DNA of 64,000 nucleotides from Rhizaria sp. SCN 62-66 (lineage: Eukaryota), in the NCBI GenBank assembly GCA_001724265.1, contig MEDY01000089.1:62001-126000 (forward strand), written 5' to 3'. How positions within the stretch are numbered: the stretch's first letter is position 1; every line of letters starts with the position of its first letter. Under the pieces are notes generated by a model. That model saw only the letters and a list, made by a program, of their open reading frames with translations, was not told the DNA's origin and did no database searches. This document shows positions 20,846 through 60,500 of this stretch, one piece after another. The translations under genes and the position numbers were made by a program.

Positions 20846-20921
<76 letters not shown>

Positions 20922-34818: not shown

Positions 34819-37800
34819 TTATGGGTCGCTGCAGAACTTGCACTCGCAAGTCGCGTTAATATGGGGCACCACAATCGCACACTCATCTTGCCAGCCCAAC
34901 CACTCGTTACTGGCACGAATACTCGCGCACACACTGCCGTTTACGCCTGTGCTCTCGCTAGCAACACTGGAGATGTGAGAACGCAAGCTAAGAGAACCCG
35001 CCCTTGCAGACGTGTTTGCGCTCGCGACATAGGCCACGGCGGCGCTGTCGACAGCAGCAACAATTTTCGCCGCCGTAGTCTCCGCCATGCTGATCTCGCC
35101 GCCCACGGTCGCCCCCGTCGCCGTGTTGATGTCGTTGATGTGGCCGACGCCGGCGTAGACCGCGATCGTCAGCAGCGCGGGAAACGGCAACTGCGACAAA
35201 CCCCCCACAGGACGCTTCTTGACGGAGTCAACGTGACTCTGGGCAGCAGAAGACTGGCCGTCAAAGCGAGCGTTCTTAGGGCTGGGCTTGGCCGACATGT
35301 GATTGCCACTGCGGCTGAAGAACAGCGCAGGCAAGTGCGGTGCTGGGTCCGCCTGAAAGGCGGCGGCATTGGGTCTCGCGCCATCTGCCGCAGCCGCGGC
35401 AGCAAGCGCGAGCCCGGTTTGCGGCTGGGGCAGCTGCGCGTGCGCAAAGAGCGAGGGCGACGGCGTGAAGAAGTACGATAGTGCATTGGGCACTGACAAC
35501 GGCACGGCAACAGACTGCTCGCAGTCGGTTTGCTGCGCGCGCTCACAGTCATTCTGCTGCTCACAGTCGCTGTCGTCGGAGTCGTCATGCATCACGGTCG
35601 TTACGGCTACCTGCTGCTCACAGTCACTTGCATGCCGCTCCTCGCAGTGGTTGCTGGGGCTCTTAGAATGCGCGTTTGCACTCGCGATGGGTGGAGTGTT
35701 AGAGTGTCCACTTGCAATACCGCTCCTGTCAGTGATATATGTAACCTCAGGTGCAGCTAGAGACCCGACCGAGGTGGCCCTAGCAACAGTACTGTTACGA
35801 CTGCTATGGTGTGTCGCGCTGTGATATGAAGAGGACGGTGTGAGATACGTCTCAAATCCGCCACTTAGACAGCTACTTAGTCCGGAGCCATAGCCACTTA
35901 CACTGCTAGACGTTGGAGCTGAGAGCACGTCCACAAAGAGACCGCTTGCAAACGTGCTGACGCAGGTTGACAGCGTGCTCTGCTCATCACCGCTGCCGTA
36001 GTCCCCGCCAAACAGACTGCTCGCGCTGGCGGCGCTTGCACTCTGGCGCTGCTGCCACAGCTGCTGCTGCCGCTGCTGACGTTGTTGCTGCTGCATTTGC
36101 TGCTGCTGCAGCTGCACCTGTTCCTGCTGAATTTGCTCCTGCAGAGCCGCCGCCTGCTCCTCCTGCGCCAGCCTTACCAGTACGCAGAGCCACTGCCAAA
36201 CCCGGCCGCGGCCCCCCCAGCACACGCCACGGTGCAGCGCGCGGACCCCCGCCACGGACAGCGGCCCGTACTTGCGTGGCAGCACCAGCGGCGCGCCGTG
36301 CGCTGCGAGCACGGTAACGGATCGCCAGGGGGAGGCGAGCTCGCGTGGGAGGGCGCCGACGGCGTGGCACGAGGGGGCGGTGGAAGTTAGGCCGCGGCGA
36401 TGCGGGGAAGATAGGCCGCCCGGGGTTGTGTTGGTTACGGGGCTTGCGTCATTGTTCTTATTGGTTTTGTTGCTTGAAGCAGCAAGAAGAACGCAGCAGC
36501 AGCCCTGAAGATCACGCAACGCGCCAGAGCTACCCGTGCAACCACTCATACTATTGTTGCTGTTCTTTGTACAAGCACTAGGTTTGTGAGCAACAGTAGG
36601 TACCGCGCTTGTAGCAGCGGTAACTGCAGCCGACGAAGATGCGGCCGCAACGGTTGCGGCGAACTTTCGGCTGGCCGCAGCGTAGCTGTCGCTATCAAGC
36701 GTGCTGCTCTTGGAGCTGAAAGTGTTCAGGTCGGCACTCGCCACGCTGTTGGACTGCGCACTTAGACTAGGAGCACTATGTAGCCGCATTCCAAGACCTG
36801 CACTAAGAGGAGAGTGCGAGGTCTGATTCTGGGTACTTAGACTGCGGTACGCGCTTGGAGCTAATGAGGTAGTTAGACTGCCGTTTGCAGCACGGTACTC
36901 CGTCCATGTGAGGGGAATCCTTAGCTCCCGCGCCAGGTCAAACGGTTTGACTGACACAGTCTCGCTAAGTACCCGCTGTGACGCGTGTAAGTACCCGCGA
37001 TGCTGCTGTATGTACTCCTTGAAATACGCGCTCCGCAGATTTGCGGCGGCGACAATACGCGCGCCAGCGCTGAGAGCAACTACACTGGCAGCAGTCTGGC
37101 CCACGGTTGAGAGAGAGCCCGCATTCGATCCAGCGTTTGCTGCTGCCGCCAAGTAGTGCCAAAGCCCTGGAAACGGCAGCGGGATCTGTAGCGGCCGCGT
37201 GTGCTCGCAATCGCTCTGCTGCAGCCGCTGGCCGCGGTCCGAGGCGCGCCCGTCGTGCGCGTGGCTCCGGAGCTCGCAGTCGGCGGTGCCGGTGCAGCCC
37301 GAGTCCCACCGGTTCCACAGCAGCAGGCGCCGAACGCGCTCGCACCGGGCGCGCTCGGCCGCGGCGGCGGACGGCTGCTGCTCTGCGGTGGCGGGGTCTG
37401 GGTGAGGCTCCGCAGTGATGTCGGCGTTTAAGATGCTGCGAGGGAAAGAGCTTCTGTTGGTGATCGCGCCGCTGTTGATGTTATTCCTGCTCTTGTTGCC
37501 GCCATCAGCAGGTGCGGCGGCGTAGGTGGTTGTTGACCGACGCAAAATGTCACTTAATGCACGCTCAACTGTCTCGGACGCAGAGACATCCCTACGGAAC
37601 TCCTCGAGAACTACCCCACTAGCGCTGATGGGAAAAATGCGGCTGTAGTGAGGACGACAACGCTTGATCACTGGCTCCAAGTCGTCGATGCAGTCCAGCG
37701 CATGGTCTGTGCGGCTGCGGGTAGTGTTAATAGCATCATCAGCACGATGACAAGAGTTGCAAACACCGCTCATAGCGGGGGCCACTTCGCCACTAGTGCC

Positions 37801-39411
37801 GACGTCTGCGCCCGCAGCGTGCGAGCAGGTGGCAGCGTGAAAGCGCGCCATGTCTCTGTGCGTAACCGTAAGCACCACCGTTTTGGTGAAGGCAAGCGCT
37901 TTGAGGCACAGCTCAGCCTGTGTCACACTCACAGTTTCTGTAGCACTCGCAAATGTATGCGGCACGCTTGCGCCACCTTCAGGAGATCTAGCAACAGCCA
38001 CGCCGCCCGCGTACATTGGCGCCACGCAGTACTGCACTGTTGCCGCAACAGCTCTTAGCGCACGGCTTACAGAGCAGACCCAGCCAGTCGCAGGGGAGCT
38101 CTCTGCGTCGTCATTGCTGGGGCCGGGACCAGGGGCCGGACGAACATTTGCTGCGCAGGGTGTAAACTGAAGCAAAGCAATCTCCCAGTTGGTACTCAAG
38201 CCAAACTTAGGGCTGACAAGATACAGTGTGTACGCACCGTCAGCCCCAATAAAGGCGTCGTCTGAGTGAGAGTGGCACAGCTTGTTAGACAGGCGCACTA
38301 GCGGGTGCATCTGACTCGGCCACTGCTGCTGACGTAGTAGCTGCTGCAGAGCCGCTCCCCGCTGTACCTGGGACTGCGGCTGTGCGCGGTACCGCGAGGA
38401 TAACATCAACTCATCGCTGTCGTCATCAAGGTGCTGAGGCGAGAACACGCGGGTAACGACAGACTGCGAATGCACTTGCGAGGACGCTCTTATGACCGCA
38501 ACCGCACTTAGCACGTCCTGCCTCGTGTTCAAGTTGCGGACGGAGTCTTGCAAAGACACCCGCCGCAAACCCACGCCAAGTCCCTCTGCAAGCGCGTCGC
38601 TTGCACCAAGCCCTATCCCGTCGTAACCCGGCGCAGCCGCAGTCCGGGCGCCCCCGAAGCCCCACGCTGCAGAGCTCCATGCCGCGCCGTCTCGGCCCTG
38701 CGAGAGCAGCGAGCTCAGCGGCACGTCGTCTTCTTCGGTGGTGTTTTCGTGCCTGATTGCGGCCTTGACGGCACAGCCCAGCGGCGGCAGCCCGCAGCCG
38801 CCGAGCGTGGTGAGGTCCGGCAGCCCAGTCGCGAGCAGCACGTGCAGCGCGTCGGCGCTGCCCGAGCACGCGGACAGCGTCAGCGCGGTCCACTGGCGGT
38901 ACCGCGCAGCGTTAAAGAAAACGCGCTTGGCGGCGAGGAGCTCAGCGGCGGACGGGGCCATGGGCGGCGGGGGCGGAAGCGAGAGAGGAGATGATAGGTC
39001 GAGCGAGAGGGAGCAGCTGAGGCTCTCAGTCGAGGTCTGAATATGCATCAAACAAAAAGGATCAAGTTACAATAATACATATTTTTTTTAGTTAGAAATG
39101 ATTGATTTAACAAGTATTTCTTGAAGTGATGCAAATATAAGCTTGTAACGTACCATGGTGAGCCTTTTGAAGTTTGATGTGGCGCTAACTTGAAGCTGTT
39201 GCTGACCTCCTTGCTTCGGTGAGTGACTGCTGTGTGCTGAAAGAAAGTCGCTCGACTCAAAAAAAGCATTGCACTTATTTACAACTGTTTGGACAACAGC
39301 TGAATCGCCAAGAATAACCGCAAAGTCAAGTGCAGACAGTCCAATGCTGTCTTGAGCTGTTGGATCTGAGCACTCCTCCACGTCTGGTATAGACCACCGA
39401 GTTAGACTCAT
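34819..39411 (-). CDS. Large protein of unknown function with degenerate N-terminal ankyrin-like repeats, about 1491 aa, 2 exons
   Basis: Exons 39411-39154 and 39036-34819; intron GTACGT...TTCAG, phase 0. Ankyrin-like QDSIGLSALDFAVILGDSAVVQTVV and QWTALTLSACSGSADALHVLLATG...GLPPLGCAV. Stop TAA. Confidence 0.65.
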
Positions 39412-41162: not shown

Positions 41163-44100
41163 TTAAAGCGGCGTGTCTTGCGTCCGGCTGCGCTTACGCG
41201 TCAGCGGCTGCCTCGATAACAGCCCGGCACCGGAGCCAGCTCCAGTGCCCGTCCCTGTCATGGCCTGCCCAGGAGAAATAAGGCCATGAGAACCGAGACC
41301 GCCCTGGGAAGCCAAGCCGCCGGCGGACATCATGCCGTACCGAACGGCGCCCGTGGTCGCAACATTGGTCGCGGGCGCGCCGGCATGCGCTGCGCCGGTG
41401 CGGATACTGCTGAGGCCCATGAGGCTGCTGCTGAGGCCGCTGCCGCCAAGGCCGCCGGTCGCCAGGGGGCTGACGCCGAGCGCGTTGAGACCGAAGCCGT
41501 GGCCGTGGCCCAACGCGGGGACGCCGCCGACAGCGGGGGAAAAGGCCAGTCCATGGTGGCCGCCGTTGCCGTTGCTGTGAGAGACCATATGGAGCATGGA
41601 GCCGTTCGCAGCCGCGGCGGTGGCAGCGGCGACGCCCAGCGGCGGCGAAGGGGCCGGGGACGGCGCGCGCGTGTTGCTCGCGCTCACGCTGGCGCTGGCG
41701 CTCGCACTCGCGGTCGTGGTCGCGCTGGCAGTCATGGCCACGGCCGTAGTTGCAGCTGCAGCCGCTGAGTTGGGCGAGATGGGGATGGCGCCGAGGGCGT
41801 TGGCGCTGTTCACAAGCCCAGGTGAGGTGGGGTTGGAGAGGCGCGCCCGCACTCTCAGCTGCTGCTGCTGCTGCTGCTGTTGTTGTTGTTGCGCGCCGGC
41901 GTTGGCACCCGTGTTAAGGCTCATCACGGTCGCGGGCGGCGGCAGGCTGAGCGGGACCGACGGCGGCCGCAACAGCACCAACGGCACCTGCGTCAGCGAA
42001 GTCGGCGTCAGCGAGCTCGACTGCGAGCAGTGACTGTGCCCGCTGCCGCTGCCGCTGCTGTAGCTCTGGCTCTGGCTGTGGCTGTGGTGCTGGCTGTGAC
42101 TGTGAGCGTTCGCACTCAGGATAACAGTAGGGTTGGGCTTCGCCCTGATTGTAAACGGAGTGATGCTCGCGCTACTGCTGCTGGTGCTGCTGACGCTGCC
42201 ATTGAACGCGCTCGCGGCCTCGTCGTGCGACTGCTGCGTGTGCTTGCTCGACGCATTGCTGTCGTGCGAGAGCGTGCTGACGCCGCTGTCGGTGAGCGCG
42301 AGCGAGTGCAGGTGCAGTGCCAGGTCGGCGAGGTTCGGCGTCAAGAGCTGCTCCTGCGACGACACAAGCATGATCGGCATCGAGCCGATCACCGTCACCG
42401 CGGCAGGCACGGGCGCCGTGGGCGTCACCGTGGGCGTCACGGCCGCGCTCGCGGGCCCCGCGGAGCCAGATCCGGCGCCAGCCTGGGGCGGCAGCAGACG
42501 TGCGCCTGCCGCGGCAGAGCTGGCGGAGTATGCGCTGAGGCTGCCTTTGGAGGGTGCGAGCAGTGCTCTCGCCGCCGCAGGCGCAGCTCCAGCGCCAGCG
42601 CCGGCAGTCAAGCCAGCCTTGCTCGCGGCGGCAACGGCGAATGCAGATGGGAGCGGGGAGTGCGCGCGCGATTGCACACGCGATTGCGAGCGCGACTGAG
42701 CCTGGGAAAGACGGTGTCCACCAGCAGCGGGAGCGGGGGCGGCGGCGGGGAATGCGGGGGTGGTAAAGCCGGGCGTCAGCGGCAGCAGCGGGCTGGTGGG
42801 GTGTAGGAACATGGAGAATGGTCCCTGAAGATGTCCATGTCCTTGTGTCTGCGCCTGAGCTTGTTGCTGAGAACTAAGCGTCGGGGGGACAATGAGAGGA
42901 ACAAAGAAGACATCGTTGCCGCCAGTGACCGTGTTCGCTGCAGCCGCAGCCGCGGTCGCAGCCGTCGTCGCCGTCGGTGCAGCGCCGCCAGCAGCAGCGT
43001 TGCTGATTGCGCTGGCGTTGAAACTGTCGTTGTTGAGCGCGATCCGAAGCGGCGAGGCCGTCACGAAGAGCGACAGCGACGACAGCTTCACGTCCCTATC
43101 CGGCGAGGCGCGCGCGCTCTTTGCCGCGGCGCCGGCGTCGCCCTCCACCGACGGCTTGCGACTCGGCCCGGGGGTTGCGTTGCCGGCGGCGCCGGTATCG
43201 GCCACAGTCACGGTGACGGCGTCGCCCGGAGCGCTCTTTAGACTGCGGCCGCGGGTAAGGCGGCCGGGGGCCAGGCTGCTGCTCTGCGCGCTGTCGCTCG
43301 CACTCGCGCTCGCGTTAACGGCACTGGCAGCGGAGTCGGGCTCGAGCTCGACCTCCGTCTTCACGCGGGCCGCCTTGTCCAGCCCCGCAACTGCCGTCCT
43401 GTTCGCACCGCTGTTGTTGCCATGCGCGGTAACGAGCGCGGCGGCGGCGGCGGCGTTGACGTCGACGGCGACGAAGCCACTCTGGCAGTGCAGCAGCACC
43501 TGCTGCGAGGCGAAGGCCACCGCGTCGGCTGCCGAAGGGTGCGTGTGCACCTCGATGCGCGACTGGCCATGCAGCGGGTGCACGAGGCGCGACCGCGTCG
43601 TCGTCGTGTTGAGCTGGATCTCCCACTGCAAGTACCCCTGGGTCGACTCGGAGGAACCGGCGGCGGTCGGCACAGACACGGCAGACGCGGCAGTCGTGGT
43701 GGGGGACTGCGAGCGGCTGGCGGCGGCGCTGGAGGCGGAGCCACTGCTTGGCGGCGGCGACGGCGCGACGGCGATGGGCTTGAGCATGACGTGGTGCATG
43801 TACACCTCGCTGACGTTGTTAATGTTCATGAACTGCGCAACCGCGGCGGGAACAGAGCCGACGCCGCAGCCGCCGGCGCTGCCCCCGCAGGCAGTCGAGC
43901 CGGCAGCGCTCGCGCCGTCGGTCGGCTTGCCAGCGCCGCCGGCCGCGCCCGCGTCGCTAGAGGGCACGGGCGCGAACGTGGCCGCGGCGATCGACTGCGG
44001 CACGGTGAGCAGCGATAGCGGTCGGACAGTGAGCCCCACGGGGGCGTGGGCCGAGGGGGCAGAACCGGCGCCAGCGTTGCCGGCACTGGCGGCACTACTT

Positions 44101-47100
44101 TCCGTCTGCTGCAGTTGTTGCTGTTGCTGCTGGGCAGTATAGTACCTGCTCGTTGCCATGTTGAGCGCAAGCGACGGCGAGCGAAACAACGCCGCCCTAT
44201 CAAACGCCAGCAGCGACTGCGGCAACGAGCCCACCTCTGCATTAGCACCAGCGCCAGCGCCAGTGGCAGCGCCAGTGGCCGCTCCGGCGGTCGACGAGAC
44301 GATGCTGTTGTTGGCGCCCAGCGACGGGCGTTTGCCTCTGATGACGCGCGAGACGCTGTTCGCGCCGCTGTTGGCGCCGCCGTTGGCGCTGGCGGTGGTG
44401 GAGACCGAGGAGACCGATACCGCGGCCGAGCCCAAACTGTGCGGGCGCGAAGTCAGCGACCCCGAGGCGAGTCTCGAAGGCGGCCGGCTCAGCGCGGAGA
44501 GCAGGAGCGCGCCGCCGCTGTGGCCGCCGTTGTGGCCGCCGCTGTGGCCGCCGCCGGGGAAGCCGGTCCCCACCTGGGGCTGGGGCGTGAGACCGCTGCT
44601 TTGGCTGCTGAGCCCGAGGCTCGCCCCACCCACGCTGCCAACACTGCCGATGCTGTGTATACTGGACGTATGCTGCACAACGCCTGGGGCATGCGCGCCC
44701 GCGATGTGCAGCCCGGAGCCCAGGCCGAGGCCCAGGGCCGGGTTGCCAAGGGCCGAGTGACCCAGAGCGGCGCCCTGCAGGCCGAGGCCGCTCAAGGCGC
44801 CCGGGCCGCCGACGAAGCCGAGGCTGGGTCCGTGGCCCAGAGCGCCGGCCCCGGCGCCGGAGGCCGTGTGGCCCAGAGCGGCGAGCGAGGAGGAGGCCTT
44901 TTGGTGCGTCGCCAACGGGGACGACTTGAGGGTGCTGCCAATGCGACCAACAGGCAGCGGCTGCGGCTGCGAATGGTGCTGATCACGGTCGCGGTCGCTC
45001 ATCGCGTGCTGTTCAGATGCAGACACAGCGTTGGCAGCAGCAGCAGCGGCGGCAGTTGTCGTGACGGATTGTGTTGAGGCAGAGAAATAGAAAATGGGCG
45101 TGATGGGAGCACTCGCGTCGGTGTAAAGGGCGCCCACACGGCCCCCACTGGCGTCGAATCGTAACGTCCTCGCGCCGGCGTTCGCGCTGGAGACAGTCGT
45201 GGTCGAGTCGGCGCTCTCGGCGGCATCGGCCATTACACTGCCGCCGCTCTCAGTCTTGACATCCGGCTGTGTGGCGTTGCTTCCAGCGCCGACTGTGCTG
45301 CTGTTGCCATGGGACAGCGCGCGCGATAGCGAGAGCACGGTCGCGAGGCCCGGCGCGAGATTCCTGGCCAGGTAGTGGCCGTGTGCAGCGAGCACCAGCT
45401 GCTCCTGCTCCTGCTCGCGGTCGTGCTCCTGCTGCGTTTGATGCTGCTGCTGATGCGGTGGCGGCTGCGCTTTGACGCTGTCTTGCTTGACGAGGGCGCC
45501 CACGCTGCCGTGACCGTTCTGCTCCTTCTGCTCGGCGCTGGCGCCAGCGGGGAACATCACGGAGCTCGGCGTGTGCTGCACAAGAATAGTGCACGTGCTT
45601 CCCCCAGCCTGTTGCTGATGTTGCTGCTGCTGCTGTTGGGGCGGCTGAGGCGACTGTTGTTGCGGCGGAAGCGGATGCCTCATAGGCGACAGCGTCAGCG
45701 CATTCGGCTGCAGCGGCGGCTGCTGCAGCGGCTGCTGTTGTTGTTGCTGCAGTTGGCCCTGTTGCTGTTGCGCGGTGAACGGCGGCGGCGGCGGCGGCGG
45801 CAGCAGCTGGCCCGGCTCTAGTGGCGGCAGCGGCTGCGCGCTCATCGTGAGCCACGAGAAGACCGGCTGCACCGGCGCCAGCGGCGGCAGCGGCGACAGG
45901 GCCTGCGGCAGCGACCCGGGCGCTGTCTGCGTGCTACTGTTGCTTATAACGCTCACAACGCTCGCGCCGCTGGGGTTGATGTTGGTGGCGCTGAACACCG
46001 CCCTGTTGCTGCTGGCCACTCTCGCGGGCCCCACGCTCGCGGCGCCGGTGCTTTGCGCGGTGCTCTGGCCGCTCGAGCCGACATTGCCGCTGGCACTGGC
46101 GCTCGCGGCGGCGTTGCTGCTGTTGGTGTAAACGCCCTCTGCCTGGTCGAGCGCGGAGAGCACGGACTTGTCTTGTAGCGCGAGCAGGTCGGCTGAGCCC
46201 GCGCGCGTGAGCCACGGCACCACGGACAGAGACATCGTCGCACCGGCACCGACGCCGGCACCAGCACCGGCAGCGCCCGCGCCCGCGCCCGGGCCAGAAC
46301 CAGGGCCGGGGGCAAGGCCGGTGTTAGCGCCGGGCAGAGCCGGGCTCTGAGGCTGCGCGGCCGCGGGCGCCCCGAGGGGCGTGAGCGGGGTGAGCGGTGC
46401 CCGGTAGAGGCCCTGACCGGGAGCGGCCAGCGTGTGCGTCGCCCCGGCCGCGGCGCCGGCACCGTGGGGGCCCGAGGCGATGGGCTGGGACAGCAGCGGG
46501 GGCATCGAGAACACCGTCGGCTGCGTCGTCTGCACAAGACTGGCGTCACTGCTGCTGCCGTGGCCGTGGCCGTGGGCGTGACTGCCGGCGTGTGCGATCG
46601 CCGCGCTGCCCGCGGCGTGGCTCCCGGTGGCGCCGTGGAAAGGCGGGTCGAAGTCCGCAACGCCTTCGTAGATAGTCGCGAGCGAGGGCTGCGTGTAGTG
46701 ACCCGCGCTGTAAGGGCCGCCGGCCGCGTAGGAGGTCCCGCTAAGGGTGTTGGTGGAGGGGTTGTAGGTGACTGTGCTCGCCCGGCCCCAGGCCGCCTGC
46801 TGCTGCAACTGCTGCTGTTGCTGCAGCTGGAGTTGGAACTGTTGTTGCTGCTGTTGCGACTGGATCTTGCCAGAAGCGTTGACAGCGTGGTGGTTGTCTA
46901 CAAAGCTGTCCGACATCTGAACAGGCACGGCCGTCGCTGCGGCCGCGTACGGGCCGTGGCCCCCCGTTGTCCTGACCTGCTGTTGCTGTTGCAGCTGTTG
47001 CTGCGGGCGGCCATGTTGGGACACCTGCAGGTAAGCTGCATTCATCTGCTGCTGCTGGAGTAACTGCTGCTGTTGCTGCTGTTGTTGCTGTTGCTGGAGC

Positions 47101-48446
47101 TGCTGCTGGAGCTGTGGCTGTTGCTGGAGATGTTGCTGCGCCAGGGTGAGGGGCTGGTACTGCACCCCATGCGCCTGCGCATGTGCCTGGGCCTGAGCCT
47201 GAGCCTGCGCCTGGGCAAACAGCTGAGCCTGCAGATACGCTTGCGTCTGCGCCTGCATATGTGTATGCGCCTGCGCCTCTGCATACCCGTTGCCAATGTG
47301 ACCGTGAGTGTGACCGAGAGCGAATGTGTAGCCCTGGACGCCGTGGCCCGCAGCCTGCGGCGGCGGCAAGCTGATGACGGGCTCTGCGGCGGCGGCAGCC
47401 GCGGCGGCGACTTTGCCTTTGCGCGCGCGCTTCGGCTGCTGCTGCCCCAGCTCGGCGCCGGTAGAGGCGGCCAGGTAGCCCTGAGCAGCGCCGTAGCCGC
47501 CGCCGTCAGCGCCGTAGCCGGCGACGACGGCGGCATGATCAATGTCGGCGAGTTTAGCGGTCTTGCCAAGATTGGCAAAGCCCTTAGGCTTTCCGCCTGC
47601 AGCGACAGCGGCGGCTGTGGCGGCAGCAGCGGCAGCAGCAACAGCGGCGGCGTTGGCAGACGCCTTGCTTTGCTTGCCAGAGGCCGCAGTAGCCGCTGCG
47701 CCAACCCGGCCGCGGCCGGCAGCGCCAGCACCCGTGACGGCGTTCGCGTACGAGTTGGCCGCCGCCGCTGCAGCCGCCGCCGTCGCCGCGTCGAATTGCG
47801 GGGCCCAGCCAGGGGCGCCGTCGCCGCCAGCGTGGCCTCTTCCGTACGCGTCACCGTACGCGTCGTCGTTGTCGTCGTTGTCGTCGCCAGCGCGCGCCGT
47901 CGCCGCGCCAGCAGCCGCGCTCGTAGCCGCAGCGATGTTGGCGCCACTGACGCCGCTCGCGGCAGAGTCTTTGCTAGCGTTGCTGGTGCGGCCGCCCTTG
48001 CCCTTGTTCTCGAGGTTCTTGTCCTGGAGCTCCTTCATGGTGAGCGTGACAGCCTCCCACAGCGGGCCCGCCTGCTGCTGCGTGGTGGTAACGACGAAGC
48101 CCTTGAGGCGCTTCTCGCGCACGAGGCGCTTGGCGACCGAGAGCGCGTTGCGTGCGCTGGGATGCTCGAATGTCGACTCGCGGCCCGCCGAGCCCAGCGA
48201 GCCGAAGTACACCATCTTGTGCTAGTCCTCGACCTCAACCTACGGAGAGGCGCATAAAACGATTAACGGCAAAATACGGGCATGAAATAGTGAGGGTGCG
48301 TCAGAGCGAGGGTAGGCAGAGCGAATTAAGAGCGAACGATCGAGAGGGGGAGCATGGGAGGATGCAATGAGGATTGAACGTACACGCCAGAACTTTTGTT
48401 CCTCTGCATGTTCGAGATTTATGATAAAGCGGCGACGCTTGTCCAT
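41163..48446 (-). CDS. WGR-domain protein with long Q/A/S/G-rich disordered regions, about 2379 aa; in-frame TAG at 48224-48222 inside the WGR domain
   Basis: Exon 1 48446-48384 (MDKRRRFIINLEHAEEQKFWR); intron 48383-48240 (GTACGT...CCGTAG); exon 2 begins VEVED*HKMVYFGSLGSAGRESTFEHPSARNALSVAKRLVREKRLKGF, which fits the WGR pattern KFWxIxV...GRIG..GQ...A...A.KL..EK.KKGY. Stop TAA. Confidence 0.8.
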
Positions 48447-48894
48447 CGCGGCAGCTCTGTGTAGAAGAAGGGGGGGTGAGCTGGAGTGTGTCGGAGCTTC
48501 GGAAAGGGTAGACGAGGGATTGTGGTGAGCAAGCGAGTGATGGAAATCCGGATGATGAATTACATGCAACGTAGCGACCGTTATCTGGCATGTTGTAGCG
48601 TCGGACGGATCGGTGTGAATTGGAATGGCATACATAATATAATATCTTTCGTGGCAAGCGCCCTAATAAAGCACTACGGAGGCATTCAAGTTCGCTTGAC
48701 GTCTCCCCACCACAAAGCACATTTCTCGACCTTCTGTCGATTAAAAGGATTACTTCGCTCTTTCAAAGCGAAGGCGACTGACGCGAGCGGAGCGAGCCAA
48801 AGCAGGGTGATGTGAGTGCTGATTTGAGATTCAAATTCTGCACCGCAAGTTCCGTCAGACGCGTTGCGAGAGCTTGCACTGGTGTTTCTCCACA

Positions 48895-51298
48895 ATGAGT
48901 TATTCGGCAGGTTTTGAGCCGCAGCTGGATGAGCTTGCCCCACAGGGCAGCTCTGTGTTGTATCAATGCCCCGATTCGGGCCGCTTCCTCCCGATCACCT
49001 CCTTGCTCTGGTCCTCCGCCCAGCGCGCTCTACTCGCCCCCGAGGACACCGTCACCGAGATCGCGTCCATTTACTGCCCTATCACGCTCGCCACGCTCAC
49101 TGCGAAGCAGGCCGCGGACGCGTACAACGTGTCCCCGCAGGGCTTCCTGTGCCCCACCTGCGACACCTCGCTCACGGCCGCCGCGCACGAGCGCAGGCCG
49201 GGCGCCGTCGTACTCAAGTGCCTCTACTGCCAGGTACGGCTCATCCGCTCTCTAATATGCTTTATTTTATCACCGCGATGCTCTCTTTAGCTGTTGAGTC
49301 CGCTATTACCACTCCTGTCACACTCTTGCCTAGGCTCACTTTGCTTTACTGGTCAATCCTATGTTCCTGTCCCCCGTGCCTGTGCCCCAGTGGTCTTCGT
49401 CCGCGACCGTGCCCGAGATCGTGGCCGACTCCCCCGCGGGCCTCATCGCCGAGACCGAGCGCGTGTTTGCACAGACCGCGCCCCCCAGCCTTCCTATCAC
49501 GCCATTCTACCCCTGCCCGCGTCCCGCGACCGACACCGTCAAAGCCACAGCCGCTGCCACCAACACCGCGTCATCTAGCGCCAGTAACAGCAGAGGCAGC
49601 AGCAGCGGCGCGATTCCCGTCCCCGGGCTGACGGTGGCGGGCGCCGCAACGCTCCCCGCGGCCTTCGCGGCCCTCCAGCGGTCACTCGCGGCCTCGCTCA
49701 AACACGAGGCCGCCGCAAACGCCTCTGCACACGCCGGTGCCGGTGCCGGTGCCGGCGCGGACTCTGCGTTGGGGCTGACTGGCGACGTCACGGCGGACTC
49801 GCTGCGCTCGCTGTCCTCGGCGGTCGCGCTAGCGACCCGCAGCGCCGAAAACAGCAGCGACGCGCCGACCGCATCATCAACAGACTCGAAGGGGGCCCGT
49901 ATAGCAGACACCCGTGTGGTCAAGAGCGCGATCGTGACGGCCACGCTGCCCTCGGTGCCGCTCGCGCCCGCGCTTCCCGCCAAGACCGTCATCGTGCCCC
50001 AACCGAACGCGCCCACCGCCTTCCTCCACAGCTCCTCCAGCTCTCGCCTCACGGGTTCCGGCACAGGTTCCGGCAGTTCGGGCGGCGCGGTGCTGCCGAG
50101 TGCGACCACGGTCACGATCGCGCTCGCCTCAGCCACCGCGCCCCTCCCGGTGTCGGGCGTGGCCGGTGCCAGCAGTCCAGGCAGCCCCGCCGTCGTCTCC
50201 CCCAGCGGCAACAGCGCTGGCTCCAGCGCGAGCTCTAGCGCCAACGCGGGGCTGGTGCATGACCCCGCCGCGCCGCCCCGCCTGGCGCCGCTGGCGCCGC
50301 TGCTGCTGCACCGCTGCCCGCGCTCGCTGAAGCTGCTGCTGAAGCCGGCGCCGGACCTGCTAGCGCCGTCGTTCGAGGTTTCGCGGCTCGCGCGCGACGT
50401 CGTCCCGGCCCTTACACTCGCGGGCACTTACATCGCCGGCGCCCCCGTGCCGCAGGGCAACTACTACAGCGTCGCCGGCAGTCACGGCGGCAACGGCGGC
50501 GGCAACGGCAGTCTGCTGCCGGGCAGCGCAGGCACGGTGCTGCGGCCGGGACAGAAGGTGCACGTGATCCTGTCGCTGACGAACCCGCTCCCGGTGCCCA
50601 TCTCCGTCTCGCTCACGCCCATCACCGTCCAGGAGGCATTCAACTCGCGCCCCGCCGCCGCCGTCGCCGCCGCCTCTGCCAACACGGGCGCCAGCGCCGC
50701 GTCGGCCGCCGCCGCGGGCAGCAGCAGCGGCGCGGCTGCGCTTGCGTCGCTGGCCTCGCTGCCGGGGCTGGCCGGCGGTGGGCTTCTGGGCTCGGTGGGC
50801 GGCGAGATCGCCGTCACCACGCTGCCCGCGGGCGTCAAGACGACGCTGCAGACGCTGCTGGAGCCGGCGCCGATCGGCAGCCACGCCCGGCGCGCGCGCG
50901 CCACCGCCGCGACTGGCGTACTGCACGGCGTCACCGCTGCCGCGGCCGTGGTGGACCTGGACCTGCCGGACCTGCCGGTGCCGGTGGCGGGCAAGGACGA
51001 CGTGGCGTCGGAGCAGTACACGGCCGCGCTGGCGGCGGGCGCGCCGCTGGACGTGCCGACGCTGGGCTCGGTGGCGGCGCACGCAAGCAGCGCCGACGCG
51101 GCAGGCGTGCTGCTGCAGCGCCTTAACGCCACCGCCGTTATGATCGGCGTCACGCCTAAGACCGCGGGGCCCGTTCGGGTGCTGCTTTCGCTCGTGTGCG
51201 GCGTGTTTAGCGATGAGGCGCGCGAGCTCACCGAAGCCGCCTACGTCAACACAAACGTGACCGTGGCTCTCTGTCTCGGACACTGCTCAAACGAGTAA
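48895..51298 (+). CDS. DCTN4: Dynactin subunit p62 (DCTN4), divergent, 748 aa, 2 exons
   Basis: Exons 48895-49233 and 49391-51298; intron GTACGG...CCCAG. EIASIYCP, FLCPTCDTSL, LKCLYCQWSS, RC...LLLKP...F...LARDVVP, LRPGQKVHVILSLTNP. Stop TAA. Confidence 0.82.
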
Positions 51299-51587: not shown

Positions 51588-54500
51588 TTAAACTGCTGTC
51601 TCTGCCTCCGCCTCGGCGGCAGCAAGAACGGCTGCCTGCAGTTGCTTCGCTGCCATGGTATGCGTGGATGCAAGGTGAATCAATACGTCCTTTGCGACCA
51701 CTGCCGCTGGGGGCACACAGAACAACCCAAAGCGTGCACATTGTAGACGGCTGAAACTGCCATCTGCCAAGAGACAGGCTGGACTGGGAGCACTGCCCGA
51801 TAGTGAAGCGGCCGCGACGTTTGCGAGAGCGGGAATGAGAGTGCCCGGCCTGAGCAGAGACGTGGCGAGCGGCCGTGAGCAGTGGGACAACAGCCTGAAC
51901 AGGCAGAGAGTCGCCAGCGACGCAGTGACACCGCGGGCCTCAACGTTAACGAGACTGCTGGTCCCACCAGCCATCGTAGATTTGCCGTGAGCTGCTGGCG
52001 TGGACAAATAGAGCAGCGAGTCAATAGCCCATTTGTTGTCGGGAAGCAACCAGTCATTCACTGCAACAACACCGATTCCCGCACCAACAGCGCCAAGACC
52101 ACTGTCTGAGCCGGTTGTCACATTACTGCCAGCGCGGCGCGAGGGACAAAGCATCGCAGTCGCGATCGTTAGAACTTCGCCCGCAAGCGCCCACTTATTG
52201 CGTCGCGCGTGCGTCTCCGCTTCTGCCAGCAGCACGCCAAAACTCGTCCCGATGTCCGATTGGCTGGGCGCGGCAGCGGCCGCGGGGTGACTGTGGGCTG
52301 TGGCGGCGGAGTTGATGGCGGGGGCGAGCAGACGCGGGCCCGTGGGAGTCGCAGCAATGACTGTAAGCGACAGCAGTACGGCACGCACATTTGTGGAATA
52401 TTGACTCTTTGAAGCACTGGTCCTGGCTCCAACGGCACGTGACGAGGTGGTGTCTGGTGTGAAAACAGCAGAGGCGAGTGCAACAGGGAACGATGTTTTG
52501 CGGGACAGCATTGCTAACGCCTTCGCATTCGCCGTCATCGTTGCGGCCTTGGAGGCCGGTGAGGATGCTGACTTTGTCGCTGTGAATGCGGCCGTGCGCG
52601 AGTGCTCGAGAACAGTCTCCGTAAGAAGCGATTGTGGGCACACGCGCGACTGTGCGTCGGCAGATGACTGCGTTAAGCTGGCTTCGCAGGAGCTGATCCA
52701 ATGTGAAGAAGTGACGGTCAGATGCTTAGACCGCTTAAGTACCGCATGTGACTGCGATCGCACAGCGTCTTCCCCCGCGTTTGTGATCGGGACTGCAGTA
52801 GTCAAAACTGAGAGCACAACAGCAACGGGAGGCGTCAAGAGTGCAATACTGTCGCTGCCCAGGGCACTACTGCTCACCGTCGTTGTCGTTGTTGTAAGAG
52901 CACTCGTCACAGTCGCTACTGCAAACGCAGCAAGGTCACGTGGCATTGTTCCATGGGGCGCCGTATCAAGCGTCTGAAGTGCAGGATATGAGAATGCCCG
53001 AGAGTACGCTTGAGTCAGCACAAGCCCAGCATCCCTTAATGGCTGTGAGTCGTGTCCCTTCTGGTCACAAGTGAGCAGCGCAAGTAGTGTTGTTGGGAGG
53101 TTGACATTAACGGAACCCTCACTAAACAAGCCGACGCGGCCTGTGTCAGCGATGCCGTGAGTGGTTGGCAGCAAAGGCACGGACAGGGACAACAGGGGCG
53201 CCAACGACGGCGGCGGCGCACACAGCAACGCCTGCATGGCGGTTGTGACCAAAGGCAGGCTGCCATTATTAGACTGCGACTTCGAGTCGGCACTTGCATG
53301 AATCAGGGCCGACATTAGCCACTGTGTCAGCGTGATTGCCGAGCTTTGATGATTGCCAGCGGAGTACTTAGATCGGTCTAAGCGGGGCACCCACGGCGGG
53401 AGCGACAGTGCATAGACTAAGCTTTGCACTGGAGTCGGGAACAGAGTGACCGGAACACAGTACTCACGGTCAGTGGTATCCGTGTCGGGCAAAGGCAGCA
53501 TGGCGGCAGCCTTGGCAGATGCAAAGCGCGCCATAACGGCTGCCACCGCACGCAGCACACTGTACGACAGCAACTGGCCGGGATGGTTGCGTAGGTATGA
53601 AAACAAAGCCCATACAGCAACTGCGGGTCCTGCTACAGTGCCGTCTTTGCCCACAGTCAGGCCACGTGTGTGTGCTAAACACATGTCAGTCATCGCGACC
53701 GCTCCTGTGCCACTTTTTGCGTTGTCCGAACTCAAGCTGATGCTGCGTGCAGGGTTAAAAGCAGTCGCCACGGCGCCAGGGTTGTAGCCCGGCAATAAAG
53801 CGCCGTGTACGTAGCCCGCCTCATCGCTCGCAGTCATATAACCACTCTCAACTAGTGAGGTACTCGTGGAAGCACCTCCATCTGGCACACTGCCCGTACT
53901 CTGGTCGAACGATACGATCGCGGAGTGTTCGGGCTCAGCAAAGTCGCCACTATCAAAATATCCCTGGTTATCAAGATACTCAACAGAACTGCCGTCGTCT
54001 TTGTTGGTGCTAGCCGAATCTTGAGCTTCAGCCTCATCAAAGTCGAGAAAACGAGACTTCTTCAGAATGCCCTTCAACATAGATTGCTTGCTGCTGGCAG
54101 TGTCACGCGAAGACTCGGGGCCCGCGTCTGTGTTCGCCGCCTCAGTGGCGGTCTTCGACCTCCGACTGCGCTTCGAACGACCGTTTGAGTTGTCGCTTGT
54201 TAGATTGTCTGAGTACCCGTCGTGTGGCGCTAAGTACCCCTGAGCAGTCGCAGCCGCAATGACGGCGCCATCGGCGAGTGCAGTGGCGGCAGCAGAAGCG
54301 AGAAAAGGCAAGCATCCATCTTCGGTATCCCCGTCCTGGTTGTGATTGTTGATAGAATCAAACGCAACGCAAAAATCGACAATGCTGGAGGCAACAGTCG
54401 TCATGAGAGTAGCGCCTGCAGCAATCGCGGTCTCGACAATAGGTTGCGTGAGTGTCAGGTTAGAAAATCCTTCTTGGACATCAAAGAAAGCGGCAGCCAC

Positions 54501-57500
54501 GGCAAGATCCTTTGAGCGAACAAAACCGCTGGGTTTAGTGTCTGACGCGGCAGTGTTGCAGCTGTGAAGAGAATGCTTGAGCTGTAGGAGCAGCCAGTCA
54601 GCGACAGCGACGGCTTTGCCGAGCGCACCGACAACAACCTCCTGGGGACTCTGCACATTGACAGCAGCAGCAGCAGCAGCAGCGGTGAGTGAACGCGCGC
54701 CCAGAGCTGGGCACACACGCAGCATCGCCGCAGCGGCGCAGAGCACTGACCGCGCAGCGGCAGCGCGGGCCGTTGTGGTGAACGCCGGTAGCGACGCCAC
54801 AGTTACAGCAACAGGGTCGGCAGAACCGCCATCTGTAGCAGTCTCATGGTGTTCTTCCGTCGTGGGTGATTGTTGAGGCGTTGAGAGCAACAACAACAGC
54901 GTGCGTGCAATGGTCATCGCAATGGGGCTCGGACTCGTATCAACGCTGTTGCGAGTGTTATGAGACGACTCGGCATTGACACAATCGCTAGAGCTAAAAT
55001 TCATCGAGAGCGGCAGCAAGACACCGATATCAAGGCAACTCTTAGTGATCTGCGCACAACACGAGAGGACAGTCAGCGCATACTCGTGATCACAGCCACT
55101 GCTCTGCTGCTCCAGACAAGAGAGGGCGACTGGGGCGAATGAGAGAATGTTGGTGATCGTCGCAGCGGGCAGTGGCAGCGCAACAGGCACGGCAACAGGA
55201 GAGCCACCGGCACCAAACTCGCGTTGCTGTTGATCCTGCGATATACCCAATGTCGCAACTGCGAGAGACGCGGTCGCCGCCATCGACCTCACGAACCAGT
55301 TAGATCCGTCTGGCCGGGACTTTGACTCGGCGGCGAGCTGTGACGACACAATCGCGAGCAGCGCTGGCACAGAGTGCGCCAGTTTCGTGACGACACCAGA
55401 GACGTGGGCCGACTCAGCGTCGGACAGGGCCGCGATCAATTCGCCAACAATGCTATCGCTCATAGTAGTGCCAACTTGGTCTGCCGCATTGGCATTACCG
55501 GCAGCATTCCCGTTGAGCATTGCCAAGTCATCGCCGTCTGTGTTCGTGACAGTGTACTTAGAGTTAGCAGAGCCACTTGAGCATAGATCGGACTCGGTCT
55601 TCGTTGCGGCAGCAATCTCTTTGGTGAATGAGCTTACAGTTGTCAACAATGCGCACACCGACTCTAACAGCACGCAAAGCAGCTCACTAACATCTCCGCC
55701 CGCGGCTAGCGTGGCCATGCCCGAGGCTGCGGCAGCGGCGGACGCGACGACTGTCGCGAGCAGCTCGGGCTGCGTCGCAAGCGTGCGCAGCAGCAGACGC
55801 GGCGACCGCAGCGCGGCCGCGAGCGCGCGCCACGCGCGCAGCTGCGTGCGCGAGTGCGGGTGCGCGAGGTAGTGCAACAGCCAGCCCAGTCCGGCGTTGC
55901 CGCTCGCGTTGACTCGAGCTGGGTTAGCGCTGGTGTCGGGTTTGAACGGCAATGCGAGAGCGTCTAGCGACGACGCGTGTGACTGTGGGCGGTCAAGCGC
56001 TCGGGGGATCGCCGTGGACAAGAATGCGAGTGCTTCGTTGATGAAGTCGAGGTGCTCCATGTGAGGCTCCCGTGAGTGAACGGCCATGCTGTCAACGACT
56101 TGCATCATCATCGCGTCACTTTTCCTCTGGCCGGTGATGTCACCCTTAGACGGGGTAAGTGCCTGGTCGGTCCGGCTGAACTGCGGCGGCGCAAGATATG
56201 CGAGAACCCGCGGCAAGACAGAAAAAACTTGGCGGCTTACAAGGCCGTCGGCAAACATCGCATCATCATCAAAGTTGGCTCCAGTTGCGCAGGACAAACC
56301 AAGCAAACGGGCGGTCAGAGCAAGGCGCAGCATGAGTGAGCCGGGACCAGATGTTGCAGCGACAGCATTCGCAGTAGCAGAAGCAGGGGCTGTAAGTGTG
56401 GGTTGCGTCGCCGTTACAGTTGTTGCAGCACTGCTGCTGCTGTCGCGTGTCCGGACCAGCAGCCGTTGCTGGGGCGGTTGAGGCGTGCTATGCATCGTGA
56501 GCAGATTGTGCTGCTGGAGGATAAGATTTGGTGACACGAGACTAGCGTAGTTGCGAGCGTCGTTGTAGTCAATATCATGATACACACTCCGCTCACTGTA
56601 ATGTTGAGTCGCCAAGGCGCCTGCGCTCACGACAGAGCTGTTGTTGTGGCCACTGTTGTCGGTGATAGCATTGTTAGCCTGAGTGACGACACGAAACTTG
56701 GCCGGGGTACGGACACCGTGCTCGTGAGAGTGATAAACAATGCTTTGAGTGCTCGGTGACTGGGTTGGCTCAGGGTTCACAGGGGTCGTGTTGTGACTCG
56801 TCGTTGTGAGCGAGCCCAAGAGTGCCGCGTTATAGCCAATATCAAACAAGTTAACCGGCCTCTCATGATGGGGCTGTTGTTGATGCTGCTGCTGCTGCTG
56901 CTGCTGCTGCAAAGGGTGGTTTATGTTAGTGTTGTGGTGGTGGAGCGGCGAGCGTGAGCGCAGCGCAGCAAGCACACTCTTGAGCGCGGTGACGGTGAGC
57001 AGCGCAAGGTCCGTCGGCACAAGCTGCACTTCATTCATATGACTCGCATCAGAAGAGGCAATGCTAGAGGCAGAAAGTGGGTTGGCGGCCGCATGGTGTG
57101 AGTGCAATGGTGCAACTAGGGGCTTCACTAATACAAACCGGCTCACAGCGTCATGCACCGTGCTCCCGTCCGCTCCTGCAGTGCAAATCACACTCTCCTC
57201 GACGCCAACAGCCACACCCACGTCGACAACATCGGCAACATGAGATACGCCGGTGGAAGACGCAGTCTCCACACCCCCACGCCTGCTCTTAACAGCTGCT
57301 GCGAGAGATGTAGGATGCGCGCACCGAGTCAGCTGTCGCTGCCGTTGGCGCACTAGCTGCAGCCACACCGTTGCCAGCAGCACCACAAGCGGCGTCAGCG
57401 GTTTGAGCTCGTGATGCGTGTCAGCATTCACACTGGCGCCAACAAGGGCTCTGCGCACCGCCGCGGCGGCCGTCACCGCAACAGCAGCAGCAGCCGTTGC

Positions 57501-60500
57501 CCGCGTCAGAGCCTCCGCCCAAGCCCCTGTTGAGGCCCCCGTGTCGGTCGCGGTCGCGGCGCTCATGAGCCCACTAGCGAGCCACTGGGCGGTGCCGGCG
57601 AGAGGGTACCCCGCGCCGAGGAAAGTCAGGCCGCGCGGGAGAAAACTTAAGCCGTGGCTTTTCAGCGCATGGCGAGGGGCTGGGGTGTTCATCGTGTTTG
57701 TCGCATCGTCCAAGCAGCATGATGTTGTAAGTAAAAGTGCTGTTTCGTTGCCGGTTGTGTGAAGGATCGCGTCGGCAGCAGACACCGGAGGCAAAGTCAT
57801 CGTACGCAATAAACAAGGTGGCAATAGCACCGATGATGATGTTGCCGTCGTTGCAGACGCTGTGGGGGTAAGGAGTGGTGAGAAAAACAAGGCCGGCGAT
57901 AAAAACAGTGCAGAATCACCACATTCGCGACCGTGAGTACCTGCACCGCCACACCACCATGATAGCTGCGGCGGTAAAGGCAACAAACTGGCGACATCGA
58001 CGCCCGCGCTGCTGGATGTTCCCGTCGCTGTGGTTGCATTGACAGTTAAGGAGACAGCCTGACTCGAAAGCACCGCGTTATGCCTCAGCATTTGCGCGCG
58101 CAGCGAGCTCGACCACGGCCAAAGACGCTTGCGCAGGGCTGCCTCATGCAGCAAGTTAAGCTGCGAAGGGAACAAATTTAGTTTGTCAAGATAACCATCG
58201 TCTTGTTGTTTTTGCATTGCGCAAAGCGCAGTTTGCGCTGGCGTGACTAACGAGGTGAGCGGCAGAGCTAACGGAGGCAAGCACGCATGCGACAGCAAGT
58301 GCGAGTGTGAGCGTGCCTGTAACTGTGACTGTAAGTGGGGCACGGCCAACGCGGACGACAGCGAGCACGCGTACGGCGCAACCATCGGCCGCCACTGCTG
58401 AGCCGCCATGTCGAGCCACGTCGCGGCCCGCAGCCGCGCGAGCGCACCGTAGTAGCTCACGTGTGACGTTGCCGCGGACAGAGCAGACAAGGCCGGAGCA
58501 GTTCCGAAAAATGCCGCACCGGGAAACGCTCGACTCTGGCTCGTAGGTGAGAAAGATACGGAGGCCGCAGCGGCGGGGACAGCCGCGGCGCGTTCTGCCA
58601 AGAGACTGCAGGCTAGGGTAACAGCATCAGGAGATGCTGTGTACGTTGTAGTTGTAGCAGCGCGTGGGGAGTTGAGAGAGGTCATCACTGTCGACTTGGC
58701 TCCCGTTATTGTCGTTGTTGCGTGAGCAGTAAGTGGCAACGTAAGAGGGGTGACTGTGAGCCAGGGGATGACGTACACGGTCGGCGCTGGCAAGATATAA
58801 GTGCCTCTAAGACTCTCGGGCAAAACGATGTAAGGGGGCTGCCCCGCGAGAACCACGTAGTTCTTCGCGCCCGCCCTGCCGTGAGCGTTGACTGCAGAAA
58901 GATCAGCCGCTGTCTGTGTCTCGGACTCTGGAGCGCTATTTGTGTCGACAGCCACAGAAAGGGCGCGCAACGTAGCAACAGTGTGGTGACCGACCCCCGG
59001 CCAGGGCAAGATTAACTTGCTACTCGCAATGAAAGTAACAAAGCTCGTATCGTGAGGATCGCTGTCTACATCAGCAGTTGTAGGAAGGGTTGAGCTCAAG
59101 TGGCTGCTGATCTGACAGTCGCTGGAACGTGGCAGCAAAAGAGATAGCGGTGCAAAGCCAATAAGCGCTAGCAGCCGCAGCGCCGCCGCACGCACAGCGG
59201 GCCTGGGGTGGTAGAGATACGCAGCTGTCGCGCGCGTCAGGGCGAGATCTGACAGCAAAGCGCCAGATCGACTCGTCGACTGTTCGCTATCCCCGTTGTC
59301 TAGGCTGCTGTTACGGTACTGGTGGTAGTGGTAGCACAGCAAAGTGACCGTGAGCTGGCACCGCGCGCTTAGCGGCGGCAGCAGCAGCGCAGAGTGGCTG
59401 CGCGCATCGCTAGCGTGGCTCTGCGTTGCGGGCACAGCGGCCGCTACCAGCAGCGTCGGCGCGTGCAGGAGCGCGCGCGTAAGCACGGTGGCTTCGTGGC
59501 CGGCGGCTGCGGCGGGGTGCGCGGCCAGCCACGCGTGCTGCGCCAGCAGCGAGACGAGCCGGGCGAGCGCCGCGTCCGCAGCGGAGAACACGGTGGAGTC
59601 ACGGTCGTCGGCGGCGGTGGACGCGGTCGCGAGGGCCGAGATTGAGTGAAAATGACCGGTCAGTGTGGCGACCTCGGCGCAAAACTGCTCCACTACCGCG
59701 TCTTGATCAATCGTAGTGCTCCTGTCAGAGGAGAGATGCCGTTCGTGTTGCTTTAATTGCAAAGAGGCAGTTGCGATCGCGACGTCCATCGCAGCTCCAG
59801 CAGCGGCATAGGGAACCTGTACGTTAATATAAGGGCTGCCTTCACGGGTCGCATCAGCAGCGTGAGTGTCGTGCTCGAATACACCCCCCAGAGGATCGGC
59901 AACAGGGGGACTCTCACTCAGCTGCAGTGTTTGATCTTGCTCGTGGTGGGTAAAGCTGGAGCCCGGATCGTTAAGAGCATACGAGTGCGCTTTCTGGAGT
60001 GCGTTCGAGTGCGATAACCTGCGCCACAGCTCGGCCGCAGCCTCAATACGACTGTGAGCAGCCCGGCTGCAGCAGCGACGCAGCAGCAGCCGCAGCGACG
60101 ACATGTCACTGCGGGCGAGAGACACAGCCGCGCGGTCAAGGACGAGCGTGATTTCCCGATTTGCGCTATTGGCCGATGTCGCAATGACCGAGCTAGGGCT
60201 TTCGCAGTTAGTGTTGTTGGTGACTGTAGCGCCAGTGGCGATCCAGGGACAACCCAGCTCAGTGGCCAGCAACGCCGCGGCCGCAGCGCCCGCGCCGCCG
60301 ACGGCGACACCGCTCATTACGCTGCGAGTGGGATTGAACAAGCGGACTAGGGGCGCCGTCGGGGCCAATGATGCTGCCAGCGTGGCAACTGCGGGCACAC
60401 TGTGCGCGCCACTGCGAATCACAGCAGCGTCCGCAGCGGAGGCTATAGCGGCGCCAGTGTCGGTGGCGCTGCCGCCGTTCTTACCATCGTTGATCTGAGC

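Follow-up and report, generated by a model that had tools for sequence, protein, structure and literature searches.

An in-frame TAG codon in the N-terminal WGR domain of a 2379-codon gene of Rhizaria sp. SCN 62-66

How is a TAG codon to be understood that interrupts a conserved domain close to the start of a gene, when the reading frame behind it stays open for 7 kb? The question is raised by a gene on the minus strand of contig MEDY01000089.1 of Rhizaria sp. SCN 62-66 (assembly GCA_001724265.1, positions 62,001 to 126,000). This stretch of 64,000 nucleotides (nt) is called the window here, and all positions are counted within it. It is eukaryotic DNA with a G+C content of about 60% and spliceosomal introns, and it has been detected in sequencing runs from bioreactor, wastewater and activated sludge. 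The gene, called the WGR gene below, begins with a WGR domain that is divided by an intron and contains the TAG (Table 1). An original prediction, made from the letters alone, had placed the TAG at codon 27 of a gene of 2379 codons (21+6+2352), and its coordinates, letters and arithmetic were correct. The reading that we favour, with about even confidence, is that a fixed nonsense substitution turned a GAR codon of a real exon into TAG, that the standard genetic code applies, and that the long open reading frame (ORF) may be used from an ATG downstream.

The TAG lies in a turn of the WGR domain

Relatives of the gene were sought with the WGR part of exon 2 as query: HMMER, run exhaustively against 1.84 billion representatives, gave four matches at E <= 0.001. 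The only orthologue found was P0004 (1099 amino acids, E 7e-8), which is laid out like the WGR gene: its WGR domain is N-terminal, its body is long and disordered, and there is a second, weak WGR-like block. The product of 48090..48221 is 50% identical to P0004 over 66 residues (BLASTP E 1e-15). P0005 and P0006 are multi-WGR proteins whose WGR repeats are of the bacterial consensus type, while P0003, which begins with repeats judged cadherin-like by eye, was set aside. Word-indexed orthologue searches returned nothing except the queries' own records. A metagenome scan yielded one locus, the gene of P0004 on metagenome contig L001. This gene has no intron at the corresponding point; the 144 nt are absent and the sequence reads KFWEVEVKDEFKMV / KFWEVEVKDEFKMVNYG.

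VEVED-TAG-HKMV of the WGR gene aligns without gaps and in the same frame to VEVKD-E-FKMV of the orthologue, in which the codon opposite the TAG is GAA (Glu42, L001 3016-3018). A frameshift is thereby excluded. An alignment to PDB chain 2ra8_A, a solved WGR protein, likewise crosses the TAG site without gaps. The gapless fit to the WGR pattern claimed in the original prediction was thus borne out, and the orthologue residue that it had named as a check proved to be Glu in the single orthologue at hand. An AlphaFold2 model of the orthologue's domain, not of the window protein, had a mean predicted local distance difference test score (pLDDT) of 80.1 and a predicted template modelling score (pTM) of 0.72. 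Its four strands, helix and fifth strand give the antiparallel sheet with one long helix that defines the WGR fold. All of the top three Foldseek matches to this model in the PDB were WGR domains, namely 2ra8 (E 0.031, probability 1.00), 2cr9 from PARP-1 (E 0.068) and 4dqy_C, and none of the PDB matches reached E <= 0.001. In the model Glu42 falls in a turn of three to four residues between strands beta2 (KFWEVEVK) and beta3 (MVNYGA). The TAG therefore stands at a turn position, as had been predicted.

The window protein shares with other WGR proteins (Pfam PF05406; the WGR domains of PARP1-3 and the bacterial stand-alone protein 2ra8) the pattern RRF...KFW.V.V....V.(Y/F)G..G..G...........A...A..L...K..KGF and, as modelled for the orthologue, the fold. 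It differs in that it has no PARP catalytic domain and in that the WGR domain heads a largely low-complexity protein of about 2350 residues. Strand beta1 and the beginning of beta2 (KFW) are encoded by the 21 codons of exon 1, the last of which are CAA AAG TTC TGG CGT, finishing at 48384.

The intron and its acceptor

Two AG dinucleotides come into question as the end of the intron: one at 48240, and a distal one (48223-48222) that belongs to the TAG itself. Splice signals were taken from a survey of the window, in which nine among 15 donor-like sites listed were read as introns. The remaining six were dropped, 13408 because it lies within GC-rich coding sequence and 25641, 10826, 40494, 16789 and 16572 because no ORF resumes downstream. 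Junctions were fixed by homology in four of the nine introns (one in the topoisomerase III gene Top3, two in the PIP5K gene and that of the WGR gene), and in the other five they were deduced from donor motifs and from ORFs that resume. Pfam continuity supports the Top3 and PIP5K introns, whose signals are as in the WGR-gene intron. The donors were GTACGT, GTACGG or GTAGGT and a pyrimidine-rich stretch stood directly before YAG in all nine; the AG was followed by G in six of them, by A in two and by C in one.

The WGR-gene intron has the GTA(C/G)G(T/G) donor, the pyrimidine-rich 3' end, the YAG and homology that resumes at the junction. Its C+T content is 72% and its 3' end is CTCTCCGTAG, also written CGCCTCTCCGTAG. 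Its length is a multiple of three, and the sole in-frame stop within it is its own terminal TAG (48242-48240). The first AG adjoins the pyrimidine tract and has G at +1, as in the majority of the surveyed introns, while purines predominate in the 15 nt before the distal AG. As the original prediction had it, this is a real intron, with the first AG as its consensus acceptor.

The effect of each splice choice on the domain was measured with a local WGR profile built from seven repeats of P0005 and P0006. The first-AG splice product, with X at the TAG, scored 44.7 bits, against 28.0 bits for the product spliced at the TAG's own AG; the unspliced reading scored 26.7 bits and a product starting at Met30 23.5 bits. 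The N-terminal 29 residues thus contribute about 21 bits. In this profile RRF...KFWR of exon 1 matches positions 4-18 and VEVED matches the ikvdg columns. With the Pfam profile, on which the original prediction had proposed to compare the domain with and without VEVEDX, exon 2 alone scored 18.1 bits with these residues and 17.7 without, both below the gathering cut-off of 22. The unspliced reading gave 17.6 bits with Pfam. Unjoined pieces of the window match only Pfam profile positions 33-75, and the N-terminus of the orthologue reached 40.5 bits over positions 13-76. The orthologue alignment, the profile scores, the 2ra8_A alignment and the splice signals together argue that the 18 nt after the first AG are exon. 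They are coding, as had been claimed, and ancestral, restoring the rest of strand beta2 and the turn, for which the orthologue has VEVKDE.

A different view is that splicing runs to the AG of the TAG, so that exon 1 is joined in frame to CAC at 48221 and VEVED and the stop are left out; the nonsense mutation would then have opened an in-frame way round itself. An in-frame TAG that follows a phase-0 intron always offers such an in-frame AG, and one of the nine introns (30722 to 30874) does use TAG followed by C. Messenger RNAs spliced at the first AG might moreover be degraded on account of their premature stop, which would enrich the distal form. We nevertheless consider use of the distal AG quite unlikely, given that the first AG has the pyrimidine tract beside it, that the distal one follows a purine-rich stretch and that the intervening 18 nt have kept preferred codons (GAG, GTC, GAC). 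The price to the protein that the original prediction had foreseen, the deletion of a core strand, would be half of beta2 and the turn, or 16.7 bits in the local profile.

No spliced joint at 48384 was among the joints listed for four runs, whose contigs have a depth of about 5 or less. The polyA metatranscriptome run X5 gave the contigs 47701-47981 and 48228-48626, neither of which reaches the TAG. The depth of these contigs is about 4, and DNA may have been present in the library. The contig 48228-48626 bears the same single-nucleotide polymorphism (SNP) at 48541 as the genomic contig of run X4 described below.

Two other ways of splicing the region were rejected as too short beside the introns of this organism, which measure 144-187 nt: a mini-intron of 22 nt (GTAGGT...CTAG, 48243-48222) and recursive splicing at GTTGAG. 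Elsewhere in the window, the intron of the gene 49334-51298 (49234-49390, plus strand) has two candidate acceptors, CTTGCCTAG before G at 49333 and GTGCCCCAG before T about 57 nt further on. In the gene 39066-34819 (minus strand) exon 1 is seemingly the start codon alone, CTCACC ATG followed directly by GTACGT (39153-39156), and the AT-rich intron after this ATG ends in ...ATATTCAG.

The TAG in genomic DNA

Contigs from other sequencing runs were compared with the window around the TAG. Those of runs X2 and X3 show no difference over 47500-48525; the two contig sets are identical and possibly represent a single, doubly filed data set. From X4, a run of a different study (2025), there is a contig that covers 47917-49000 (1084 nt) and carries two SNPs, at 48541 and 48714, with TAG and intron unchanged. 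Since it is unchanged in the X2/X3 and X4 contigs, the TAG is common to strains sampled years apart. The contigs show it to be genuine DNA and exclude a fault in the assembly; with the orthologue alignment and the profile scores, they also speak against a wrongly called splice site. The contig depths are about 4.5-5, at which a second allele might escape notice. X4 also holds short contigs of a relative with about 86% identity, covering 47986-48182 and ending short of the TAG, and the differences lie mostly at third codon positions. A closer relative of the gene is therefore present in the same habitat, and the C-terminal part of the WGR domain is under constraint.

It might be argued that the TAG marks a null allele or a young pseudogene, an intact second allele having been missed or the product being no longer needed. 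Low depth would favour such an oversight, as contigs drop minor variants, and in the same assembly the frame of the PIP5K gene seems to be broken by 1 nt within a (CAG)n run. On the other side, contigs of two independent data sets cross the TAG without a break or an alternative letter, strains from different studies have it in common, and the repeat-rich ORF of 7 kb behind it is unbroken, which fits a product that is still made. This explanation appears very improbable to us.

Is TAG a sense codon?

If TAG were regularly translated in this organism, it should be met in other genes. The five longest ORFs (4136, 2352, 1415, 1227 and 1077 codons, 10,212 in total) contain neither TAG nor TGA. With TAA taken as the sole stop, only two in-frame TAGs were found in real gene frames, that of the WGR gene and one at 6842-6840, which corresponds to 2 per ~15,000 codons in the window. 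Further in-frame TAGs were discarded: those at 30872-30874 and 49331-49333 are intron acceptors and that at 18795-18797 lies inside an intron. A codon-usage scan covered 55 TAGs with stop-free flanks of 50 codons; the best-scoring ones were antisense to genes rich in G+C at third codon positions (GC3), and none was convincing except 6842-6840. An ORF-based gene at 15650-14676 (minus strand), which has no Pfam match, appears to end in TAG (14678-14676, context CGG TAG AGT). There is no tRNA gene, and so no suppressor tRNA, and no Rfam match within the 64-kb window, and the gene for eRF1 lies outside it. In this organism TAG does not commonly serve as a sense codon. The translation of the TAG implied by the original prediction is therefore not supported by the window, with its 10,212 codons free of TAG, its gene apparently ended by TAG and its lack of a suppressor tRNA.

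A nuclear code in which UAG alone has become an amino acid codon, with UAA and perhaps UGA as stops, has precedents. PMC5304391 describes the rhizarian exLh (gene ends UAA 56, UGA 15, UAG 0; 384 in-frame UAGs in 71 genes; UAG = Leu) and Iotanema spirale (UAA 104, UGA 15, UAG 0; 204 in-frame UAGs in 126 genes; UAG = Gln), and a UAG-only change is likewise reported for phyllopharyngean ciliates (PMC11687900). The window resembles exLh and Iotanema spirale in its TAA-dominated gene ends (TAA:TGA:TAG 10:2:1) and in having an in-frame TAG in a conserved domain, one of two in-frame TAGs overall. It differs from them in a density of such codons far below their per-gene counts and in the gene that seems to terminate in TAG, and its five longest ORFs do without TAG. 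CAG accounts for 3.9% of codons, and its long poly-Q runs are free of TAG, which counts against TAG = Gln. Reassignment would be recognised by many in-frame UAGs at conserved positions across genes, and these were not found within the 64-kb window. The window gives no support to a reassignment of TAG, which we hold to be highly improbable.

The second TAG and local decoding of UAG

The TAG at 6842-6840 (minus strand, region 6804-8102) follows an ORF of 420 codons with RGG repeats and a RanBP2-type zinc finger (22.8 bits, under the Pfam cut-off of 27). The ATG of Top3 (6806-6804; MRRLVVLCVAEKPS...) comes 36 nt later in the same frame. The final 60 codons ahead of this TAG have a GC3 of 0.83, and the 11 triplets behind it resemble coding sequence. 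The region may be a single gene interrupted by an in-frame TAG, or two separate genes with 36 nt between them.

These properties bear on the possibility that the UAG of the WGR gene is read through by a near-cognate or suppressor tRNA in the context AC-UAG-CA, giving the full protein of 2379 residues with an intact WGR domain. Such readthrough could be specific to the gene or reflect generally weak UAG termination in the organism. It would explain why the TAG fills exactly one codon at a variable turn position and why exon 1 and the 18 nt have remained good WGR sequence. The TAG before Top3 is embedded in the same ACTAGCA, from which the apparent TAG terminator (CGG TAG AGT) differs, and TAA ends 10 of the 13 genes. 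Programmed readthrough at UAG-CAR-YYA or UAG-CAR-NBA, motifs taken from PMC3159437, is a further likeness, in that C at +4 and A at +5 are their first two bases and one codon corresponds to one aligned residue. The rest of the hexamer does not fit, however, being CAC-AAG at the WGR site and CAG-CAU at Top3. Nor is there a stable structure 3' of the TAG (z = 0.62; 148 of 200 shuffles fold as well), and the site lies N-terminally inside a domain, not at a gene end. Readthrough at codon 27 has no obvious regulatory logic. The heptamer match of the two sites was noticed post hoc, and ACTAGCA occurs three times in the window, against 6.6 expected, with the third copy out of frame. On balance we regard readthrough as rather unlikely.

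A related idea joins both TAGs. UAG might be a weak or partly captured stop in this organism, AC-UAG-CA being decoded often enough for TAGs to persist in at least two genes; this we consider distinctly unlikely.

Finally, the UAG might be corrected to UGG (Trp) in the mRNA by A-to-I editing, as in filamentous ascomycetes. Editing of the fungal type is reported to favour an A preceded by U and to act frequently on UAG where a gene is intact apart from it (PMC4817773, PMC10776026, PMC11156358). The WGR gene shares with restorative editing in ascomycetes (PMC4817773, PMC10776026) a TAG that lies within a conserved domain while the gene is otherwise whole. The intron signals of the window (GTACGT, CTAAC-like branch sites) are fungus-like. 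The A of the TAG, however, falls not within a hairpin loop but in an internal loop of an insignificant fold. A filamentous ascomycete would hardly be expected to combine few introns with MORN-repeat genes and giant low-complexity genes. No RNA contig covers the TAG. Editing is accordingly extremely improbable in our judgement.

A proposed tolerated nonsense substitution

The favoured explanation, a nonsense substitution that is tolerated, would require a single G-to-T change in a Glu codon of the beta2-beta3 turn. Ribosomes starting at the ATG at 48446 would then stop after 26 residues or, with the intron retained, after 69 residues at the acceptor's own TAG. The product of 2350 residues would be made, if at all, from Met30, which is encoded by a strong-context ATG 6 nt downstream of codon 27 and is a candidate restart or start codon of the long ORF; such a product would be without strands beta1-beta2 of the WGR domain. 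Because the orthologue P0004 also has Met at this position (FKMV), Met30 is older than the TAG. A start-proximal nonsense change with an in-frame ATG nearby is the kind most easily tolerated, and it is commonly rescued in this way. The TAG may be tolerated for just this reason, being close to the start and having a strong-context in-frame ATG two codons downstream. The case is like known tolerated start-proximal stops with downstream AUGs in the single-base change, the ATG two codons on and the intact long ORF. It differs from them in the spacer of 6 nt and in that a restart would split a folded domain; reinitiation is something that we infer here.

Several observations weigh against this explanation. 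Little reinitiation would be expected as close as 6 nt behind a stop. Exon 1 has kept the sequence of a good WGR strand, with RRF and KFW matching the distant bacterial consensus in the local profile, which would be surprising if the protein had long been made without it. The X5 contig 48228-48626, the sole contig of an RNA library over the intron, contains exon 1 and the whole intron unspliced. The two in-frame TAGs share the identical heptamer, and codon-like sequence flanks the one at 6842-6840. The ORF-based genes end in TAA (10/13), TGA (2/13) or TAG (1/13) despite a GC3 of 70%, and TAA-dominated ends are the pattern reported for UAG-only reassigned organisms (PMC5304391).

Layout of the WGR gene

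The features of the gene are collected in Table 1. The long frame behind the TAG is mainly of low complexity (A/S/Q/G-rich), with at least 25 short tandem repeat rows within 46000-49500 alone and no frame break among them. The second WGR-like block in this frame is only suggestive.

Table 1. Features of the WGR gene, in window positions
Feature	Position	Strand	Description
Exon 1	48384..48446	minus	ATG (48446-48444) and 20 codons, M D K R R R F I I N L E H A E E Q K F W R
Intron	48240..48383	minus	spliceosomal, 144 nt, phase 0, donor GTACGT from 48383
VEVED codons	48225..48239	minus	GTT GAG GTC GAG GAC, second half of WGR strand beta2
In-frame TAG	48222..48224	minus	codon 27, context GAC TAG CAC; its AG is the second candidate acceptor
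In-frame ATG (Met30)	48213..48215	minus	context AAG ATG G, with A at -3 and G at +4; 6 nt behind the TAG
Rest of WGR domain	48090..48221	minus	HKMVYFGSLGSAGR ... KRLKGFVV
Long open frame after the TAG	41163..48221	minus	2352 stop-free codons (48221-41166), then TAA 41165-41163
Possible second WGR-like block	43464..43628	minus	weak, QWEIQL...SGFVAV, common to the C-terminal part of P0004, BLASTP E 0.047

Other genes of the window

The PIP5K gene (18845-24069, plus strand) has a split kinase domain, with Pfam positions 2-172 near 18845-19770 and 201-287 near 23620-23950; the two halves are more than 1200 low-complexity codons apart. It changes frame in a long (CAG)n run, from ORF 19490-20974 into ORF 20836-24069 (region 20836-20975). 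The sequence there, ...CAGCAGCAGAGCAGCAG..., looks like a 1-nt deletion; either the frameshift is real or the repeat has been misassembled. A frame that runs off the window (51588-63998, minus strand) stays open for at least 4136 codons and has no Pfam match, and neither has the 1415-codon ORF 34819-39066.

Implications

With a WGR domain at the head of a very long disordered protein, the gene represents a new architecture, of which one relative was found in the library of 1.84 billion proteins. Read as we favour, it is a well documented natural nonsense codon, and it illustrates that a single well-aligned in-frame stop does not prove recoding. Should UAG instead be partly captured, the WGR gene and a fusion of a zinc-finger/RGG protein with topoisomerase III would both be affected, and gene ends would have shifted to TAA. 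A UAG-only code change would then be seen at a stage that is early or depends on context. To our knowledge, early stop-codon capture, in which the stop is rare, leaky and bound to a context, has hardly been observed in nature. The possibility would matter if the Top3 case and the TAA bias hold genome-wide, and the recurrence of the organism in bioreactor and wastewater samples would make such a stage testable.

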